Assembly (NCBI GenBank): GCA_965603135.1
Contig: CBFDBV010000002.1
Location: 1-39,969, forward strand
From: an uncultured bacterium
GTDB lineage: Bacteria; Armatimonadota; Zipacnadia; Zipacnadales; UBA5352
Length of the DNA stretch: 39,969 bases
Reading direction: 5' to 3'
The notes beneath the pieces are model-generated. The model saw nothing but the letters and a program-made list of their open reading frames with translations, had not been told where the DNA came from and made no database searches. Of the stretch, positions 1 to 7,732 are shown one piece after another (the first letter of the stretch is position 1; every line of letters begins with the position of its first letter). Made by a program: the position numbers and the translations under genes.

Positions 1-685
1 CGTGGCCGTCCACGAAGGCGAAGTTCGCGCCATCGTGGTGCGGGAAGACCGGCTGGCCGTGCTCGTCCACCTCATAGAGCAGGACCGTCGTGGCGGGCTC
101 AGCGATCTCCTCCACCTTCTTGCCCGCCACCAGCGGGTTGATCGCGTAGCCGCCTTTCTCCCGCCGGGGGCGGGTCGGGCACTCGAAGGGGTGTTCGTTC
201 TTGACATAGGGCATAATGTCGTCTTCCCAGGTCACGGTTCCCGGCAGGCGGCCTTCGTTATCCCTGGCGAACATCTCAATCGCCAGCGCCAACTCCTTCA
301 TGTTGGCGATGCACGATGTCTGGCGGGCCTTCTCGCGCGAGGTTGCGAACGTCGGGAACAGAATGGCGGCAAGCAGGGCAAGCATTCCCAGGGCCACGAA
401 GACTTCGATGAGACGGGACGTCGGGACGCGGCGAGGCTTCTCGGTTGCGGCCATCTTACGCACCTCCTGCATTACGCCTGTGGTTAGCCCCGGTTCCCAC
501 GCGGAATGCAGGTAGGCGTCCTTGAAGCGGCGCTGATCCTCGCGGACCTGGCGCAGCCACTCCCGGCACCCGGCACAGCCCAGCAGATGCAGGCGCACGC
601 GCAGCCACTCGATGAGGCCACACTCCCCGTCGGCGAAGGCCGACAGGCTCTCCAACCAGTTCTCGCACGGCCTCGGGTCGGTCAC
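1..685 (-). CDS. Anti-sigma factor: zf-HC2 zinc-finger domain fused in frame to a pilin-like TM helix and an H-X9-DG (DUF1559-type) pseudopilin domain. The 3' end is truncated by the window edge.
   Basis: My own translation of the minus strand. GTG 685-683 overlaps the sigma stop TGA 684-682 (GTGA). N-terminus VTDPRPCENWLESLSAFADGECGLIEWLRVRLHLLGCAGCREWL carries C...H-x3-C-x2-C. The frame stays open through an internal ATG 454-452 (preceded by AGGAGGTG) into [43 protein letters not shown] and ends ...HHDGANFAFVDGH at nt 2. It is not in the ORF track because no stop lies in the window. The listed 456..695 ORF is a different frame. Confidence 0.7.
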   Translation of the reverse strand, partial: MTDPRPCENWLESLSAFADGECGLIEWLRVRLHLLGCAGCREWLRQVREDQRRFKDAYLHSAWEPGLTTGVMQEVRKMAATEKPRRVPTSRLIEVFVALGMLALLAAILFPTFATSREKARQTSCIANMKELALAIEMFARDNEGRLPGTVTWEDDIMPYVKNEHPFECPTRPRREKGGYAINPLVAGKKVEEIAEPATTVLLYEVDEHGQPVFPHHDGANFAFVDGH

Positions 686-1230
686 TGCGCTTCACCTGCC
701 TGCGTTATCTGCGACTGCGCCTCTTCGAAGAGCTTTCGGAGCCGTTGCCGGGCCCGACAGCAGCGCACCCGGACGTTGTTGACGGTCGTCTCCAACGTCC
801 GGGCGATATCAGAGTATGATAGCTCGCTGATATACCGCGCTGCCAGGACCTCGCGGTCGGCCAGCGGAAGCTGCCCGAGCAGCTCGGTCAGCGGGCCGCC
901 CTCGGGCTCCGGGTCCGTCGTGCTGGGAGCGGGCGCCTCGTCCAGGGGGACGCTATCGGGTTGCCTGCGCGACAGATGCTTACGGCACTTATTGCGCAGG
1001 ATGCCCAGCAGCCATCCGGCGAACTTGCTCGGCTCGCGCAGTTGCCGGAGCTGCCGGTAGGCGTCAATGAATGTCTCCTGGGCGAGGTCGCGCGCCGCCT
1101 CCGGATCGCCGGTGAGGTGGTGAGCGGCGGCGACAAGGGAGCCTTGATGCCGCTCAACGAGGACGGCATAGGCATCTGCGTCACCTTGGAGCACTCGCTT
1201 CACCACCTGGGCGTCCGTGGCCACCTGCAT
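682..1230 (-). CDS. ECF (sigma-70 family, group IV) RNA polymerase sigma factor
   Basis: 182 aa. Region 2 signature ETFIDAYRQLRQLREPSKFAGWLLGILRNKC and region 4.2 HTH LSYSDIARTLETTVNNVRVRCCRARQRL. ATG 1230-1228 is preceded by GGGAG. Confidence 0.9.
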   Translation of the reverse strand: MQVATDAQVVKRVLQGDADAYAVLVERHQGSLVAAAHHLTGDPEAARDLAQETFIDAYRQLRQLREPSKFAGWLLGILRNKCRKHLSRRQPDSVPLDEAPAPSTTDPEPEGGPLTELLGQLPLADREVLAARYISELSYSDIARTLETTVNNVRVRCCRARQRLRKLFEEAQSQITQAGEAQ

Positions 1231-1360
1231 TCGCTCCCGGGGCGCGTCCTGGAGGACGCTTCGCGTCCTCGCCCGTTAAGTGCCCTTCCGGCCGCGAAAC
1301 ATTACAGATCGCGCGACGATTTCAATGCAGGCGGGTTCGAGCCCTGCCTGAATCAAACGA

Positions 1361-1382
1361 GCCCGGCCTCATCAGGCCGGGC
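1361..1382 (-). terminator. GC hairpin (8-bp stem GCCCGGCC/GGCCGGGC, 6-nt loop) followed on the minus strand by TCGTTTGATT. Possible intrinsic terminator after the STN gene pair.
   Basis: Read directly from the sequence. It lies 206 nt downstream of the stop at 1588 and upstream of the next sigma gene. Confidence 0.35.
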
Positions 1383-1587
1383 CCGCTGGCCGTGTTCGTG
1401 CCCGTCGGCCTGCCGGAGACGGGCATCTCCATCCCCACCCTCAGGGCCAGTCCTCTGGGACCGCCCCCCATCAGCCACGTGTTCGTCCCTGAGACCCTGA
1501 CTACCGAGCGCGGCGAGCCTCTGGGCCGCTGCGCTCAACCAGTGTCACTGATCCCCTGTCACGAGTTCCCTATCCAGCCGCCCGCCC

Positions 1588-2952
1588 CTATTCCTCCTCA
1601 CCCAACTCCCCCGGCGGCTGCTTGCTGAGCCACATATCATCGAAGTAGAGCGTGGTGCCTTCGCCCTGCTTGACGTAGCCAGCCGAGTAGAAGCGCAGGA
1701 TGTTGATCTGATCCCAGCCGAGTGGGGCGCGCACCGACATCAAGTCGCTGTACGCGTAGGACAGCAGCTTCCAGCCCTGCCAATCGAGCGGGATCTTGAC
1801 CTGATAGCGATCATGCCCCTCCGTAGCCGGGTTCTCGGACTCGACCCAGAACAGTATCTCGCCATCGGTCGGCTCCTTGCAGTAGACCCACATGTTGACG
1901 TACTCGTAGGCGGACCAGTCGCGCGGCACCGCCGTGTTATACAGCGAGGTCTGCGCTATTGTGCTCACCCACTCGGCCACCCGCCCGCCGGTCTTGGTGG
2001 GTTCCTTGACGCAGCCTATCGCTCCGGAGCCGTAGGCCAAGCAGCCCCAGTCGGTGTCGGGGTGAAAGATCACCAGCTCATCGCCGGGCGGCTCGGCTGG
2101 CATAGCGCGGATGTCATCTATCCTCAGGACCGTCCCTGGAACGTACTCCACCCACGTCGGCCAGCCCTCGAAGGCCAGGCGCATCATATCTATCTTGTGG
2201 AAGCCCACTGGCTCGTACGCACGCTGAAAGCTGCGCTCGTACAACCGCAGTTCCCGCCAGCCCTCCCAGTCAATCTTGATGAGGCAGCGATAGTAGTCCC
2301 TCTGCTCCGTGTCCGGATTGTCCGAGTCCGCCAAGAGCGCCATCACCGCGTCGGTGGCCTGTTCGGAGTGAATCCAGAGGGCCACGCTGTCGTAGCCGGT
2401 CCAATCGTGCGGGGTGCGCTGGTGGAAGATGTACTTCGCAGCGGTGTCCGGGTCCCACTTGCCCGAGGTTTCGCCTTGCTTGACGACCTCGTTGTCGGCG
2501 ACCAGGTCCACCATGTTCTTGTCCCAGTTGTCATGCCAGCGCTTGGCGACGTCGCCCTCCATGTCGTCTATCACGAGGGGTTCCGTGGGCAGCTCGCGCG
2601 GCTCTGCTTCCTCCGCTGGCGCCGGCTCCGGCGGCGCCGCGCCCTTTCGTACGATCTCGTACGCCCCGTCCGCTTCCTTCAACTCGACCCCCGCCGTCAC
2701 GCACAGCATCTGAAGCGCCTGCCTGGCTGACACGCCGTCAACAGAGAAGCGCTGCACCGGCTTGTCCGCCACGCCCGGCGCGACCGACACCTCGAACCCG
2801 CCCGCCATCGCTATCATCTGGGCGACGGCCCCCACGGTGGAGTCCTGCACGTCCAGGCTGACCTTCGGCGCCTCCTCCTGAGCGAAACACGGAACTGACG
2901 CGCTTGCGATAAGGAACCCCAATAGCACGATGCTCATCCGGGGACCTGACAT
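1588..2952 (-). CDS. Secreted STN-domain protein with two tandem CBM/CIA30-like beta-sandwich repeats (copy 1, parental C-terminus ...KQPPGELGEEE)
   Basis: ATG 2952-2950 with AAGGAGG 8 nt upstream. Signal peptide MSGPRMSIVLLGFLIASASVPCFAQEE. STN-like block VSLDVQDSTVGAVAQMIAMAGGFEVSVAPGVADKPVQRFSVDGVSARQALQMLCVTAGVELKEADGAYEIV. Two internally similar ~150-aa repeats (PHDWTGYDSVALWIH...IDWEGWRELRL...LRIDDI and PRDWSAYEYVNMWVY...LDWQGWKLLSY...LYFDDM). The 50-codon extension in the ORF track upstream of this ATG is discarded. Confidence 0.8.
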   Translation of the reverse strand: MSGPRMSIVLLGFLIASASVPCFAQEEAPKVSLDVQDSTVGAVAQMIAMAGGFEVSVAPGVADKPVQRFSVDGVSARQALQMLCVTAGVELKEADGAYEIVRKGAAPPEPAPAEEAEPRELPTEPLVIDDMEGDVAKRWHDNWDKNMVDLVADNEVVKQGETSGKWDPDTAAKYIFHQRTPHDWTGYDSVALWIHSEQATDAVMALLADSDNPDTEQRDYYRCLIKIDWEGWRELRLYERSFQRAYEPVGFHKIDMMRLAFEGWPTWVEYVPGTVLRIDDIRAMPAEPPGDELVIFHPDTDWGCLAYGSGAIGCVKEPTKTGGRVAEWVSTIAQTSLYNTAVPRDWSAYEYVNMWVYCKEPTDGEILFWVESENPATEGHDRYQVKIPLDWQGWKLLSYAYSDLMSVRAPLGWDQINILRFYSAGYVKQGEGTTLYFDDMWLSKQPPGELGEEE

Positions 2953-3068
2953 CTCACTCGCCTCCTTGCCAAGTGCTGCAACATCCACGACCCCGCGCAG
3001 ATACGTATTCGTCGCGTGCGCCTGGCATTCCTGCCTGCTATGACCGGCGTGCACGCTACTGATCGCGC
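1613..3068. repeat. Tandem direct repeat, unit 1 (1456 bp, period 1462 bp)
   Basis: Matches 3075-4530 at every position I compared. All six-frame ORFs in the two units translate identically at an offset of 1462. Confidence 0.9.
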
Positions 3069-4414
3069 TCCGATGGCGGCTGCTTGCTGAGCCACATATC
3101 ATCGAAGTAGAGCGTGGTGCCTTCGCCCTGCTTGACGTAGCCAGCCGAGTAGAAGCGCAGGATGTTGATCTGATCCCAGCCGAGTGGGGCGCGCACCGAC
3201 ATCAAGTCGCTGTACGCGTAGGACAGCAGCTTCCAGCCCTGCCAATCGAGCGGGATCTTGACCTGATAGCGATCATGCCCCTCCGTAGCCGGGTTCTCGG
3301 ACTCGACCCAGAACAGTATCTCGCCATCGGTCGGCTCCTTGCAGTAGACCCACATGTTGACGTACTCGTAGGCGGACCAGTCGCGCGGCACCGCCGTGTT
3401 ATACAGCGAGGTCTGCGCTATTGTGCTCACCCACTCGGCCACCCGCCCGCCGGTCTTGGTGGGTTCCTTGACGCAGCCTATCGCTCCGGAGCCGTAGGCC
3501 AAGCAGCCCCAGTCGGTGTCGGGGTGAAAGATCACCAGCTCATCGCCGGGCGGCTCGGCTGGCATAGCGCGGATGTCATCTATCCTCAGGACCGTCCCTG
3601 GAACGTACTCCACCCACGTCGGCCAGCCCTCGAAGGCCAGGCGCATCATATCTATCTTGTGGAAGCCCACTGGCTCGTACGCACGCTGAAAGCTGCGCTC
3701 GTACAACCGCAGTTCCCGCCAGCCCTCCCAGTCAATCTTGATGAGGCAGCGATAGTAGTCCCTCTGCTCCGTGTCCGGATTGTCCGAGTCCGCCAAGAGC
3801 GCCATCACCGCGTCGGTGGCCTGTTCGGAGTGAATCCAGAGGGCCACGCTGTCGTAGCCGGTCCAATCGTGCGGGGTGCGCTGGTGGAAGATGTACTTCG
3901 CAGCGGTGTCCGGGTCCCACTTGCCCGAGGTTTCGCCTTGCTTGACGACCTCGTTGTCGGCGACCAGGTCCACCATGTTCTTGTCCCAGTTGTCATGCCA
4001 GCGCTTGGCGACGTCGCCCTCCATGTCGTCTATCACGAGGGGTTCCGTGGGCAGCTCGCGCGGCTCTGCTTCCTCCGCTGGCGCCGGCTCCGGCGGCGCC
4101 GCGCCCTTTCGTACGATCTCGTACGCCCCGTCCGCTTCCTTCAACTCGACCCCCGCCGTCACGCACAGCATCTGAAGCGCCTGCCTGGCTGACACGCCGT
4201 CAACAGAGAAGCGCTGCACCGGCTTGTCCGCCACGCCCGGCGCGACCGACACCTCGAACCCGCCCGCCATCGCTATCATCTGGGCGACGGCCCCCACGGT
4301 GGAGTCCTGCACGTCCAGGCTGACCTTCGGCGCCTCCTCCTGAGCGAAACACGGAACTGACGCGCTTGCGATAAGGAACCCCAATAGCACGATGCTCATC
4401 CGGGGACCTGACAT
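3056..4414 (-). CDS. Secreted STN-domain protein with two CBM-like repeats (copy 2, junction-derived C-terminus ...KQPPSERDQ)
   Basis: Identical to copy 1 from the ATG (4414-4412 = 2952+1462) to ...WLSKQPP. The last codons and TAG stop come from the duplicated 13-nt tail of the upstream ATPase gene (ctactgatcgcgc, 3056-3068). Confidence 0.8.
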   Translation of the reverse strand: MSGPRMSIVLLGFLIASASVPCFAQEEAPKVSLDVQDSTVGAVAQMIAMAGGFEVSVAPGVADKPVQRFSVDGVSARQALQMLCVTAGVELKEADGAYEIVRKGAAPPEPAPAEEAEPRELPTEPLVIDDMEGDVAKRWHDNWDKNMVDLVADNEVVKQGETSGKWDPDTAAKYIFHQRTPHDWTGYDSVALWIHSEQATDAVMALLADSDNPDTEQRDYYRCLIKIDWEGWRELRLYERSFQRAYEPVGFHKIDMMRLAFEGWPTWVEYVPGTVLRIDDIRAMPAEPPGDELVIFHPDTDWGCLAYGSGAIGCVKEPTKTGGRVAEWVSTIAQTSLYNTAVPRDWSAYEYVNMWVYCKEPTDGEILFWVESENPATEGHDRYQVKIPLDWQGWKLLSYAYSDLMSVRAPLGWDQINILRFYSAGYVKQGEGTTLYFDDMWLSKQPPSERDQ

Positions 4415-4530
4415 CTCACTCGCCTCCTTGCCAAGTGCTGCAACATCCACGACCCCGCGCAGATACGTATTCGTCGCGTGCGCCTGGCATTCCTGCCTGC
4501 TATGACCGGCGTGCACGCTACTGATCGCGC
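3075..4530. repeat. Tandem direct repeat, unit 2
   Basis: See unit 1. The junction filler tccgat sits at 3069-3074. Confidence 0.9.
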
Positions 4531-5855
4531 GCGGAGATGTGCCGGAAGATACGCATTGCCTCCGCGACATCGGTTATGCCCTCGATGGCCTTCAGTGCAG
4601 CATCGTGAAAGATGGGGGTGTACTTGGCTTCCGCCGCTGCTTCAATCTCGTCCATCTCGGCCCCACTGCTAAGGAGAGCCCGGATCTCTTCATCGAGCAC
4701 AAGGACCTCGTGGACGGCTGTCCGGCCGCGGTAGCCCGTCTCCCGGCACTCCTTGCAGCCAGCCCCCGTCCAGATCAGCGCCGGTACCTCCTTCACGTCG
4801 GCCTCGCGGAGCCACGCCGCCTCCTCGTCCGTCGGCGGTCGCTGCTCGCGGCAGTTCTCGCACACCTTTCGCACCAGCCGCTGCCCGAGCGCGCCGAGCA
4901 GGGCATCGGCGATGAGGAAGCGCTCGACCCCCATGTCCGCCAGCCGCCGCAGGACGCCGGCGGCGCTCTGGGTATGCAGCGTGGTAAGCACCAGATGCCC
5001 GGTCAGGGCGGCCTGGATGACAAGGTAGGCGGTTTCCAGGTCGCGTATCTCCCCGCACAGGATGATGTCAGGGTCCTGGCGCAGAATGTGCCGCATCGCC
5101 ACCGCGAAGGTCAACCCCGCCCGCGGGTTGAGTTGCACCTGGTTCACTCCGTCTATGAGCACCTCGACCGGATCCTCAACCGTTGTGACCTGGTGCTCGC
5201 GACTGTTTAACTCTCGTAGTGCCGCGTACAGCGTCGTGGTCTTGCCGCAGCCCGTGGGGCCGGACACAATCACTACGCCGCACGGACTGCGCAGTAGCTT
5301 GTCGAAGGCCTTCCGGTTGCTCTCTGACATTCCGATCTGATCCAGGTCCGGCATCTCCTCAGGGAGCACCAGGATGCGCATCACGACACTCTCCCCGCGC
5401 GCTGTCGGCAGCGAAGAGATGCGCAGGTCATACTCGCGACCCTCGTGCTCGATGCGGATGCGCCCGTCCTGGGGCATTCGCGTCTCCGTCATGTCCATGT
5501 CGGCCATCAATTGGATGCGCGCCACCACCGGCTCGTGCAACTGCGCGGGCAGCGACATCACATCATGCAGCACCCCGTCAATGCGATACCGCACCACCAT
5601 GTCCCCTTCCTTGCGTTGTATGTGGGTGTCGCTTGCGCGTTCCTGGATGGCCTTCGTGATGATGCTGCCAACCGTCTCGACGGTCGCCTCCGCGTCCGCC
5701 GCGTCCGCGATGCTCAGCACCTTCCTGACGCCCTTCAGCTCTCGTCGGCACTCGACGCACTGCGTCAGGTGCTGTTCCACGGCCTGGTGCTGCTGCTCGT
5801 CCAGCTCCTCCTTGAGATATGCGGTCATCAGCTCACGACAGTCCTCGCACTTCAT
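4518..5855 (-). CDS. zf-HC2 anti-sigma zinc finger fused to a GspE/PilB-family type II secretion / type IV pilus ATPase
   Basis: 445 aa. N-terminus MKCEDCRELMTAYLKEELDEQQHQAVEQHLTQCVECRREL (C-x2-C...H-x3-C-x2-C) with no TM segment. Then an N2-like domain (RYRIDGVLHDV...RMPQDGRIRI...RISSLPTARGESVVMRIL), Walker A GPTGCGKTT, Walker B DPDIILCGEIRD, His box TGHLVLTTLHT and tetracysteine CENC...CKEC. ATG 5855-5853 abuts the sigma stop, and GGGAGGAG lies 5 nt upstream. Confidence 0.85.
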   Translation of the reverse strand: MKCEDCRELMTAYLKEELDEQQHQAVEQHLTQCVECRRELKGVRKVLSIADAADAEATVETVGSIITKAIQERASDTHIQRKEGDMVVRYRIDGVLHDVMSLPAQLHEPVVARIQLMADMDMTETRMPQDGRIRIEHEGREYDLRISSLPTARGESVVMRILVLPEEMPDLDQIGMSESNRKAFDKLLRSPCGVVIVSGPTGCGKTTTLYAALRELNSREHQVTTVEDPVEVLIDGVNQVQLNPRAGLTFAVAMRHILRQDPDIILCGEIRDLETAYLVIQAALTGHLVLTTLHTQSAAGVLRRLADMGVERFLIADALLGALGQRLVRKVCENCREQRPPTDEEAAWLREADVKEVPALIWTGAGCKECRETGYRGRTAVHEVLVLDEEIRALLSSGAEMDEIEAAAEAKYTPIFHDAALKAIEGITDVAEAMRIFRHISARDQ

Positions 5856-6428
5856 TCAGATCTCCTCCCTGTCCAGTAGCTCTCGCAGCCGGGCGACGGC
5901 GTGGTGCATGCGCGACTTGACCGTCCCCACCGGGATGCCCAGGACCTCCGCTATCTCCGCGTAGCGCAGCCCCTCATAGTGGCTCAGCACGAAGACCACG
6001 TGCTGCTTCCGCGGGAGCCTGGCGATGGCCCTGCGGATGCGCTGCATCCGGTAGCGGCGCAGGGCAACGTCCTCGGCGGGCTCGGCCCGCGCCAGCATCT
6101 GCGCCAGCAGCCTCCTGCCGCCCTCGCCAAGCTGCTCCTCGAGCGGCGTGACGCGCGGCCGAGACCTCATGGCGCGCAGGCGGTTCAGCCAGTGGTTCCA
6201 GGCGATGGTGTAAAGGTAGGTGGTGAACTTCGCCCGGGGCTGGTAGCTGTCGCGCGCCAGCCACAGTCTCACCAGCGTCTCCTGCGCCGCGTCGGCGGCC
6301 TCCTCCCGGTCCCGGCAGAGCCGATAGAAGAAGCTCTCCAGGCGCGGTCTGTGCCGCTCGACCAAGGCGGCAACGGCTTCCGTGTCGCCGGCCTTGACAT
6401 GGTCCATCAGCTCACGGTCGCTGGGCAT
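5856..6428 (-). CDS. ECF (group IV) RNA polymerase sigma factor
   Basis: Region 2 AQETLVRLWLARDSYQPRAKFTTYLYTIAWNHWLN and region 4 LRYAEIAEVLGIPVGTVKSRMHHAVARLR. I prefer ATG 6428-6426 (GAGGTG 4 nt upstream) over the track start at 6446. Confidence 0.88.
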   Translation of the reverse strand: MPSDRELMDHVKAGDTEAVAALVERHRPRLESFFYRLCRDREEAADAAQETLVRLWLARDSYQPRAKFTTYLYTIAWNHWLNRLRAMRSRPRVTPLEEQLGEGGRRLLAQMLARAEPAEDVALRRYRMQRIRRAIARLPRKQHVVFVLSHYEGLRYAEIAEVLGIPVGTVKSRMHHAVARLRELLDREEI

Positions 6429-6616
6429 ACCGCACCTCGGCTGCATGCTGCCGACAGGTCAAACACGCGCCATCGCAGAGGGTTCAATGGAGGAGTAAGC
6501 AAGAGGCGCCTGCCGCGGCGGCATCGTAACGACATCGCAGAGCACAGGGAACGGGCGTCAAAGCACTACGTCCAGCAAGCAGAGATACTCCCCTGTCCGC
6601 GTTCTCCGCCGATAGC

Positions 6617-6655
6617 TGCCGTTCCCCATTCCCTATTCCCCATTCCCCATTCCCC
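6617..6655. repeat. Heptamer array: head TGCCGTTCCCC, then ATTCCCT and ATTCCCC x3
   Basis: Units are GTTCCCC 6621-27, ATTCCCT 6628-34 and ATTCCCC at 6635-41, 6642-48 and 6649-55. The array overlaps the last codons (GMGNGE) and TAG stop of queH. Confidence 0.85.
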
Positions 6656-7193
6656 GCCTACTGGGCAGACACCCGCAGTAATCCTGCCGGTAGAGGCGGT
6701 ACTGCTTGCCGAGCTGCACGCTGCGCAGGAAGCCGTCGCGCTTCTTGAAATCCTCGTCGAGGAAGGTCAGGCCATGGTCGGCGGCCACGCGCTGGCCGAT
6801 GGGGTTGATCCTCGCCGCGGGCTTGTGAGGGCTGACGGTCAGCGTGCTGGCGATGGTCTCGATGCCGCGCTCGACGGCGAACTGCGCGACGGCCCGCAGG
6901 CGCAACTCGTAGCAGATCAGACAGCGCTCGCCGCCCTCGGGATCGCCCATCCTGCCCAGGCAGGCCTCCCTCCAGCGGTCGGGCTGGTACGGGCGGACCG
7001 TGAGCGGCAGGCTGATCTCCCGCGCTAGCTTCCTCATGGATGCCAGCCGATGGTCGTGCTCGTCCTGAGGCTGGATGTTGGGGTTGAACCAGAGGGCTTC
7101 GACCGTGAACCTCTCGCGGAGGCGCTCGACCACCGCGCTCGCGCACGGCCCGCAGCAGACGTGCAGCGCGATTCGCGGGCACTCACTGCTCAA
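6633..7193 (-). CDS. queH: Epoxyqueuosine reductase QueH (DUF208 family)
   Basis: LHVCCGPCAS, CLICYELRL and RQDYCGC cysteine motifs. Proposed TTG start 7193-7191 overlaps the upstream stop (TTGA), with GGAGGG 6 nt upstream. The Arg/Gly-rich N-terminal extension in the track ORF is discarded. Confidence 0.75.
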   Translation of the reverse strand: MSSECPRIALHVCCGPCASAVVERLRERFTVEALWFNPNIQPQDEHDHRLASMRKLAREISLPLTVRPYQPDRWREACLGRMGDPEGGERCLICYELRLRAVAQFAVERGIETIASTLTVSPHKPAARINPIGQRVAADHGLTFLDEDFKKRDGFLRSVQLGKQYRLYRQDYCGCLPSRRGMGNGE

Positions 7194-7645
7194 GCCTTGC
7201 CCTCCAGCGCCTGTCGCTCGCGCCACACGCGGATGAAGTCCCGCGCCACGGCCAGTTGGCCGGCGTTGGCGTGCACCTCCACACCGGCCTGGCGCAGCGC
7301 ATCCTGAGCTTCGTCGAAGCTGATGCCCGTGGTCACCAGGTAGCACGCCGCGGTCAAAGGCGCGCGCCCCACCCCCGCCTTACAGTGCACCACCACGCGC
7401 CGCCCCTCCCGCGCCGCAGCCCCGATAAAGACGCCTATCATCAGCAGCCTGTCTACGTCCGGCATCGAGCCATCCGCCACCGGAGCCCACAGCGCGACCT
7501 CCGGCGGCCTGTCACCGAAGTCATCGCGGACGCTCTGCCGCAGGTTGACGCTGACGGTCACGCCCTGATCGTTGAGCTGCTTCCAGTCGTCGGCGCTCAT
7601 ACTGCCGCCGACCCACAACTGGCCGGTGACGCGATGAAAGCTCAT
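7190..7645 (-). CDS. Dual-specificity / Cys-based protein phosphatase (HCxxGxxR)
   Basis: Active-site loop VVHCKAGVGRAP. ATG 7645-7643 (MSFHRVTGQLWVGG) has GGAGGTGGA upstream. Confidence 0.7.
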   Translation of the reverse strand: MSFHRVTGQLWVGGSMSADDWKQLNDQGVTVSVNLRQSVRDDFGDRPPEVALWAPVADGSMPDVDRLLMIGVFIGAAAREGRRVVVHCKAGVGRAPLTAACYLVTTGISFDEAQDALRQAGVEVHANAGQLAVARDFIRVWRERQALEGKA

Positions 7646-7666
7646 CGCCAGTCCACCTCCACCTCT

Positions 7667-7690
7667 GGCAAGGGGCAAGGGGCAAAGGGG
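7667..7690. repeat. Heptamer array GGCAAGG GGCAAGG GGCAAAG GGG. It is the inverted partner of 7741-7771.
   Basis: Read directly. It lies 22 nt upstream of the phosphatase ATG on the coding strand. Confidence 0.8.
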
Positions 7691-7732
7691 CCACCACTCC
7701 ACCACCGCGTACCTCTCTGCCCCGGCCCCCCG

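Follow-up and report, generated by a model that had tools for sequence, protein, structure and literature searches.

Can the ATPase core of a pilus or secretion motor serve as the sensory part of an anti-sigma factor? This question is raised by a two-gene locus in a 39,969-nucleotide (nt) stretch of DNA from an uncultured bacterium (contig CBFDBV010000002.1), which was analyzed over its full length and is referred to here as the window. On the minus strand, a gene for an extracytoplasmic function (ECF) sigma factor (5856..6428) is directly followed by a gene (4518-5855) whose 445-amino-acid (aa) product begins with MKCEDCRELMTAYLKEELDEQQHQAVEQHLTQCVECRREL and joins a zf-HC2 domain to a T2SSE-family ATPase core of the GspE/PilB type. 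Bacterial signal transduction has ECF sigma factors as its third major pillar, and, to our knowledge, nearly all of the characterized anti-sigma factors sense extracytoplasmic signals or redox stress. Domains of the zf-HC2 family bind and sequester a cognate ECF sigma factor, which is usually encoded directly upstream. We favor, with modest confidence, the reading that the two genes of the window form an autoregulated ECF sigma/anti-sigma module in which the PilB-like ATPase serves as a cytoplasmic input.

The sigma gene and the two domains of the fusion protein

The sigma factor is a 190-aa protein composed of the sigma2 and sigma4 domains only (Sigma70_r2, E 2.5e-18; Sigma70_r4_2, E 6.4e-20), and it scores 114 bits on the ECF model TIGR02937 (sigma70-ECF), for which the cutoff is 42.9. 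Its best match in the PDB is B. subtilis SigW (5wuq_A, E 6.7e-26), the partner of RsiW. The longest open reading frame (ORF) begins at 6446; we place the start at the ATG at 6428, as the initial annotation had done, because the N termini of homologs and the position of the promoter both agree with it. Direct reading of the window confirmed two further points of that annotation, namely that the TGA of the sigma gene (5858-5856) abuts the ATG of the fusion gene (5855-5853) and that a Shine-Dalgarno sequence, GGGAGGAG (5862..5869, minus strand), lies within the 3' end of the sigma gene, 6 nt ahead of the fusion ATG. Purine-rich GGAGG-like runs are likewise found ahead of the fusion start in related loci. 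In the window, and also in loci L092 and L101, the two genes are in the same frame with one TGA between them. We considered readthrough of this TGA, which would yield sigma factor, anti-sigma domain and ATPase as a single chain, and rejected it as a family feature, given that most junctions in the family are 4- or 11-nt overlaps that place the genes in other frames.

The first 53 residues of the fusion protein (5697..5855, minus strand), which form three helices, appear from their sequence to be a genuine zinc-binding anti-sigma (ZAS) domain, and binding of the sigma factor is predicted. The zf-HC2 model PF13490 matches residues 3-37 with an E value of 7.2e-8 and 32.8 bits, above the curated cutoff of 22.2, and a profile of the N terminus matches RslA (3hug_B, E 4.8e-6) and RsiW (5wuq_C, E 3.7e-3), both of which come from sigma/anti-sigma co-crystals. 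NCBIfam models of anti-sigma factors, RsrA included, give weak matches as well. The candidate zinc ligands are C3, H29, C33 and C36. The H29-x3-C33-x2-C36 pattern is invariant in all of the aligned family members (32/32), and C3 is at least 90% conserved in the same alignment and invariant in the 28 full N termini. The second cysteine of the N-terminal C-x2-C in the window protein, C6, is not conserved across the family. The zf-HC2 assignment made in the initial annotation is upheld by these profile matches and by the invariant H-x3-C-x2-C.

A model of the fusion protein built with AlphaFold 2 (AF2) on the 32-sequence alignment (predicted local distance difference test score, 92.5; predicted TM-score, 0.83) places helices at residues 3-14, 20-32 and 34-53, with H29, C33 and C36 at the junction of helix 2 and helix 3. 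The third zinc finger helix ends at residue 53 and is followed, after a 2-residue break, by the first helix of the N2 domain (residues 56-71), so that the flexible linker of ~30 aa previously described between the two halves is not borne out by the model. We found no transmembrane segment in the fusion protein, as had been noted before; the highest 19-residue Kyte-Doolittle mean is 1.37, and it is located in the ATPase core.

The remainder of the protein is a GspE/PilB core. The T2SSE model PF00437 spans residues 52-435 (E 1.7e-123) and is covered from position 2 to position 370 of 370. The N2 domain (residues ~56-170; 5346..5690, minus strand) carries the invariant RxDG and QDGR motifs and the arginines R145 and R160. 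The C-terminal ATPase domain (CTD; residues ~176-445; 4521..5330, minus strand), which was recognized through Pfam, NCBIfam and PDB matches, contains the Walker A motif GPTGCGKTT (5235-5261, minus strand), the Asp box EDPVE, the Walker B motif DPDIILCGEIRD, the His box TGHLVLTTLHT, and the tetracysteine C332/C335/C367/C370 (4746-4862, minus strand). Across the 32 family members, conservation is complete or reaches at least 90% for the Walker A motif, EDPVE, the Walker B motif, the His box, RxDG, QDGR and the tetracysteine; within the tetracysteine, C335 is invariant and the other three cysteines (C332, C367 and C370) reach at least 90%. The protein matches EpsE (1p9r, E 5.7e-109) and also PilF (5oiu) in the PDB. 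Its fold is closest to the extension ATPases, with a TM-score of 0.86 for PilF, followed by EpsE and Geobacter PilB at ~42% identity, whereas the PilT-type retraction ATPases are far weaker matches (23-28% identity).

What the core lacks is the domain that precedes N2 in its relatives. The N1 domain docks GspE to GspL, and the MshEN domain serves in cyclic di-GMP binding and PilB regulation. A Pfam scan found no N1/MshEN domain (PF05157) in the fusion protein, and the nearest nonfusion relatives all carry one. The alignment to GspE of V. cholerae/V. vulnificus begins only at residue ~115 of the full-length chain (4pht), which indicates that N1/MshEN is absent and that N2 and the CTD are retained. 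The description of a complete GspE/PilB core without N1 thus stands, given the full-length PF00437 match, the presence of all motifs and the start of the 4pht alignment. The scores on the NCBIfam equivalog models fall short of their cutoffs, with 483 versus 630 for GspE (TIGR02533) and 436 versus 676 for PilB (TIGR02538).

The conservation of the zinc site bears on one alternative, in which sensing falls to the ZAS domain. Thiol oxidation or zinc loss at C3, H29, C33 and C36 would free the sigma factor, in the manner of RsrA and RshA, and the ATPase, rather than being the input, would act as a scaffold with six anti-sigma domains in each hexamer or as an effector modulated by sigma occupancy. 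The invariant or nearly invariant H-x3-C-x2-C and C3 fit such a redox switch, as does a weak NCBIfam match to RsrA (TIGR03988, E 9e-5), and soluble ZAS anti-sigma factors typically respond to oxidative stress according to reviews (PMC8999054). However, C6 of the N-terminal C-x2-C is not conserved, and a redox switch leaves unexplained the retention, throughout the clade, of an ATPase that is complete and catalytically conserved. Many ZAS domains, those of RsiW and RslA among them, moreover use zinc structurally, without physiological redox sensing. On balance, we regard a redox switch as improbable.

Recurrence, sigma linkage and descent of the fusion

The initial annotation had proposed a database search for proteins that combine zf-HC2 and T2SSE. 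This architecture (PF13490+PF00437) was found in 37 of the 120 best homologs, which are ~440-455 aa long and extend down to 44% identity. The next-best homologs are ordinary MshEN-PilB proteins of 560-600 aa, several of them from named Armatimonadota, and the named members of the fusion cluster come from "Armatimonadia bacterium"; the small lineage that carries the fusion is probably Armatimonadota. When 1.84 billion representatives at 50% identity were searched exhaustively, ~12 of the top 150 were full-length fusion-type representatives. The top of the same search also held proteins P0121-P0134, which are ~980-1050 aa long, contain two T2SSE stretches and are unrelated to the anti-sigma question; P0121 adds T2SSF (platform) domains and represents an ATPase-platform fusion.

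The fusion could also be followed at the DNA level. A fixed-spacing DNA pattern was derived from the invariant residues C3, R7, L18, H29, C33, C36, E39, A53, D76 and H78, and it is specific to the fusion because it reaches from the zinc finger into the first part of the ATPase. The pattern matches the window once, where none is expected from window shuffles, and it matches every known fusion locus. It matches none of 80 ordinary GspE/PilB loci (0/80), a negative control taken from a scan of species genomes with Walker A and Walker B patterns. Fifty metagenome contigs match the pattern; 48 of these start with ATG and encode M-[KNQR]-C, and the ORF continues to ~440-450 aa where the contig permits. 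Complete or near-complete metagenome-assembled genomes with the module include GCA_964390495.1 and GCA_054773435.1.

This recurrence bears on the possibility that the fusion is an artifact or a relic, that is, a frameshift or assembly join of an anti-sigma gene and a truncated pilB, or a dead zinc finger that lies next to a sigma gene by accident. A perfect 1.46-kb tandem duplication directly downstream of the fusion gene could signal an assembly problem. Nevertheless, the same single ORF of ~440-450 aa has been recovered from dozens of assemblies and sources that are independent of one another, with identities as low as 44%, its ligands are invariant, its spacing and its linkage to the sigma gene are constant, and the AF2 model is confident through the junction. 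Absence from relatives and a frameshift or assembly origin, both of which the initial annotation had allowed for, are contradicted by this recurrence. We consider an artifact or relic extremely improbable and, given the recurrence data, effectively excluded.

Both halves of the fusion are under purifying selection. In a neighbor-joining tree of the ATPase domain only, a single split has all 45 fusion sequences on one of its sides, a pattern that is consistent with the fusion having arisen once. The same side also holds five N-terminally truncated calls of the fusion family and one HTH_17-T2SSE protein. The latter, P0187, is 501 aa long and has an HTH_17 domain of the excisionase type where the zinc finger would be; its T2SSE core groups with the fusion clade in this tree, and it represents a second regulatory or DNA-binding N terminus on the same ATPase lineage.

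Linkage to the sigma gene was counted in 42 nonredundant loci, 3 of which have <200 nt of upstream sequence and were not assessable. A full-length sigma homolog is linked to the fusion gene in all of the 39 assessed loci (39/39). In 38 of these it precedes the fusion gene in the same orientation, and in the remaining one (L001) it lies downstream. This count answers affirmatively the earlier question of whether an ECF sigma gene is conserved directly upstream. The two genes overlap or abut in 17 of the 38 loci (4-nt overlap in 11, 11-nt overlap in 3, 1-nt overlap in 1, and abutting, as in the window, in 2), and most of the others are separated by short gaps. There are four larger gaps, three of which are explained. 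In L098, a transposase-type ORF (HTH_32/33/29; 1689-2267, minus strand) sits between the sigma gene and the fusion gene. In L120, a degenerate partial duplicate of the fusion gene (~1900-2420; ATDIEI for ASDIHI and PQEGS for PQDGR) lies between the sigma gene and the intact copy. In L122, the fusion ORF reaches upstream through two Clp_N repeats; this single ORF (140-1573, minus strand) places the two repeats ahead of zf-HC2+T2SSE, and its T2SSE match ends at profile position 255 of 370. Pairwise identities of the sigma factors and of the anti-sigma domains covary (r = 0.88; Mantel p = 0.001).

Sigma homologs with at least 52% identity share contigs with fusion proteins, and those below ~50% identity are ordinary ECF sigma factors, some of which come from Planctomycetota. 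For two sigma relatives, in loci L136 and L137, the overlapping next gene encodes a protein of 517 or 554 aa with a transmembrane-like stretch at residues ~103-126. The L137 partner begins with MKCSEAADWVAYLKGEL...AHGGRCAAC and aligns to the fusion anti-sigma profile in hhalign with 96.4% probability (E 1.3e-9), an alignment that pairs C3, H29, C33 and C36; the L136 partner matches the profile weakly (58%) and without the zinc ligands. Viewed from the sigma side, the fusion protein would be best described as a membrane ZAS anti-sigma factor whose transmembrane and periplasmic part gave way to a cytoplasmic ATPase. Viewed from the ATPase side, the N1/MshEN domain appears to have been exchanged for an anti-sigma domain. 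The initial annotation had described this event as a docking domain replaced by a sigma-sequestering module; N1 is indeed missing and a ZAS domain is present, but on the sigma side the event is better described as the replacement of a transmembrane and periplasmic part.

The two loci share the gene order TsaE, ECF sigma factor and overlapping membrane anti-sigma factor of ~520-555 aa (L136:1-6125; L137:3461-6261), and one of them is named as Planctomycetes. The L137 partner contains a weak squalene-hopene-cyclase-like repeat in its extracytoplasmic part.

Autoregulation and the candidate input

A de novo search of 35 nonredundant upstream regions returned the bipartite motif GAACCTTT-N12-CGTTCTA, which corresponds to GAAC-N16-CGT and follows the classical layout of ECF promoters. 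Up to 13 of the 35 regions contain the exact pair, compared to at most 5 in shuffles, and the motif typically ends 15-40 nt before the sigma start. In the window, the operon is preceded by the ECF-type promoter TTGAACCCTC-N12-TGTTTGA (GAAC-N16-(C/T)GT; 6457..6487, minus strand), which lies ~30 nt upstream of the ATG at 6428. When the window was scored with a position weight matrix (PWM) built from 22 sites in related loci, the site at 6487-6457 was the best match of the whole 40 kb, at 13.1 bits; the one other match, at 11.1 bits, was no higher than those in shuffles. All of the long loci have the motif at the front of the operon. This includes L001, in which the gene order is inverted and the fusion gene precedes the sigma gene; its site, which scores 21.3 bits and was not part of the PWM training set, is located 35 nt ahead of the fusion gene. 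From these sequence patterns, the operon appears to be autoregulated by its ECF sigma factor.

Under the module that we favor, the fusion protein would act as a soluble class I ZAS anti-sigma factor whose 53-residue helical N terminus binds and sequesters the cotranslated sigma factor. The ATPase core, consisting of N2 and the CTD with intact catalytic motifs and presumably hexameric, would take the place of the transmembrane helix and periplasmic sensor. N2 would swing against the CTD during the ATP cycle, and the anti-sigma domain is joined near-rigidly to the first N2 helix in the AF2 model, a junction through which the clamp movement of N2 and the CTD could plausibly govern how accessible the anti-sigma domain is. 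We infer from this arrangement that sigma release may be nucleotide dependent: the nucleotide state, or a ligand or partner that alters it, would change the accessibility of the anti-sigma domain, and the released sigma factor would then transcribe its own operon from GAAC-N16-CGT together with a regulon elsewhere in the genome.

We also considered that a PilB/GspE hexamer was recruited as an anti-sigma sensor, in which ATP binding, ATP hydrolysis or platform docking shifts N2 relative to the CTD and frees up to six sigma factors per hexamer. We hold this reading only tentatively and think it doubtful. If true, it would amount to a direct covalent checkpoint from motor state to transcription, distinct from proteolysis, partner switching, redox sensing and anti-sigma secretion.

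Whether the ATPase still drives a machine is a separate matter. The fusion protein is most likely a dedicated regulatory paralog rather than a primary pilus or secretion motor, given its equivalog scores below the cutoffs, the lack of adjoining machine genes and the presence of canonical PilB in pilus clusters. We found no platform (GspF/PilC), pilin or prepilin peptidase genes in the 40-kb window, and none is conserved beside the fusion gene in the flanks of L001, L003 and L005. In two look-ups, canonical MshEN-PilB genes with Armatimonadota-like relatives were found to sit in clusters of pilB, pilT-like, pilC, pilD and pilin genes.

The opposite view is that the fusion protein still works as an extension ATPase, in a type IV pilus or a type II secretion-like machine encoded elsewhere. 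Docking on a PilC/PilM or GspF/GspL-like platform, or ATP cycling, would occlude or distort the anti-sigma domain and thereby free the sigma factor, such that transcription would report the assembly or activity of the machine, a logic like that of FlgM export through the flagellar apparatus. A motor would account for the strong conservation seen in all of the catalytic motifs, in the N2 arginines and in the tetracysteine of the CTD, and it agrees with the fold and sequence, which are nearest to the extension ATPases and not to PilT. Genomes of the Armatimonadota type encode type IV pilus clusters and many prepilin-like proteins, and L001 has two N_methyl genes at a distance of 4-5 kb from the fusion gene. 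However, the N1/MshEN domain on which GspE docking and PilB regulation depend is absent, no conserved platform, pilin or peptidase gene adjoins the fusion gene in any locus, neither equivalog cutoff is reached, and the canonical pilus clusters already hold a PilB of their own. We consider a motor checkpoint of this kind unlikely.

Several observations weigh against our preferred module and against a regulatory paralog. The strict conservation of the catalytic motifs and of the zinc tetracysteine fits a working motor equally well, and the canonical PilB clusters that we examined come from other samples than the fusion loci. Beyond the operon's own promoter, the PWM picked out no strong site in the window and none across ~190 kb of related loci; no regulon member was found there, which places any regulon elsewhere in the genome. 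The AF2 model shows no separate fourth helix of the kind that is usual in class I anti-sigma domains; its position is occupied by the first N2 helix (residues 56-71), and the mode of sigma binding could differ accordingly, with this helix replacing the fourth. The bootstrap value for the set of sequences that makes up the fusion clade is only 45/100.

The other genes of the window include those for QueH, a phosphatase, glycoside-hydrolase-like proteins, a Lon-like protease, NusA, IF-2 and TruB. QueH (epoxyqueuosine reductase) and a dual-specificity-phosphatase-like protein are encoded directly upstream of the operon (6633-7705, minus strand), an order that is not kept in related loci. A second ECF sigma factor of 182 aa is encoded 3.3 kb downstream on the same strand (682-1230, minus strand); it is distant from the fusion-linked sigma factor (45 bits), and any partner gene would run toward the window edge. 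The tandem duplication downstream of the fusion gene comprises 1613-3068 and 3075-4530, with a period of 1,462 nt and zero mismatches over ~1,456 nt, and its right-hand boundary coincides with the 3' end of the fusion gene. Each copy carries a single gene, the product of which is secreted and has a CBM11-like domain (ORFs 1588-3102 and 3056-4570); the true start is probably at the signal peptide MSGPRMSIV... The repeat may reflect a duplication of very recent date or an artifact of assembly.

Relation to known systems and meaning of the module

The fusion protein resembles the anti-sigma factors RsiW (with SigW of B. subtilis, 5wuq), RslA (with SigL of M. tuberculosis, 3hug) and ChrR (with RpoE of R. 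sphaeroides, 2q1z) in its N-terminal helical H-x3-C-x2-C domain, and the module resembles these systems in having an anti-sigma gene directly downstream of a coupled ECF sigma gene, an autoregulated operon and a SigW/RpoE-like sigma factor. RsiW and RslA are membrane proteins that are released by regulated proteolysis, whereas the fusion protein has no transmembrane segment; ChrR has a cupin sensor, whereas the fusion protein has a PilB/GspE core of ~390 aa after the anti-sigma domain. Unlike in the solved ZAS domains, the usual position of the fourth helix is taken by the first N2 helix. With GspE/EpsE of type II secretion and PilB/PilF of type IV pili, the fusion protein shares the full N2 and CTD, ~42% identity, TM-scores of up to 0.86, the catalytic motifs and the zinc tetracysteine; unlike them, it lacks the N1 (GspL docking) or MshEN (cyclic di-GMP) domain, scores below the equivalog cutoffs, is encoded away from platform, pilin and peptidase genes, and has an anti-sigma domain. 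The fusion protein shows each ZAS family feature that can be tested at this level save a separate fourth helix, and it misses three features of GspE/PilB, namely N1/MshEN, equivalog score and genomic context.

Nucleotide-gated release of a sigma factor has a functional precedent in SpoIIAB and RsbW. These GHKL kinases, which work by partner switching, are cytoplasmic anti-sigma factors whose sigma binding is ATP/ADP dependent. They differ from the fusion protein in that they have an unrelated fold and no zinc finger, act on the group 3 sigma factors sigma-F and sigma-B, and phosphorylate an antagonist. Transcription is likewise tied to the state of an export machine for FlgM/sigma-28 and SpoIIIAA/sigma-G. 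SpoIIIAA is a secretion-type ATPase that is needed for sigma-G activity (PMC2703783). FlgM is a secreted anti-sigma substrate and the SpoIIIAA ATPase acts indirectly; neither has an anti-sigma domain fused to an ATPase. For M. xanthus PilB, the nucleotide state has been proposed to signal for exopolysaccharide production (Black et al. 2017, as cited in PMC11656802). This PilB is like our reading of the fusion protein in that the nucleotide state of the ATPase is proposed to carry regulatory information beyond pilus extension. It differs in being a canonical pilus motor with N1, in having an output other than a sigma factor and in lacking an anti-sigma domain. Among ECF groups, ECF270 and ECF271 have soluble ZAS partners whose mechanism is uncharacterized (PMC8999054); their model proteins come from Acidobacteria and Chloroflexi, and the window sigma factor may belong to either group.

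In ~8.3 million full texts, with the supplements of the ECF reclassification outside that scope, we found no paper that links anti-sigma or zf-HC2 with T2SSE, GspE or PilB, and a 2024 review of PilB cofactors leaves sigma factors unmentioned. The earlier statement that no characterized example was known agrees with this result. Collectively, our findings point to a fully cytoplasmic switch of a gene program that has not been described previously. If true, the module would represent a new class of cytoplasmic anti-sigma input, in which energy or nucleotide state, or the engagement of a machine, is what is sensed, and the PilB/GspE field would gain a natural case of an ATPase core with a transcriptional output. 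The module is compact, with two genes and one defined promoter, and is easily tested; its parts could provide an orthogonal and possibly ATP-responsive switch for synthetic biology. Given that the carrier lineage, probably Armatimonadota, has been little studied, the finding also flags a regulatory module that may be specific to this group.

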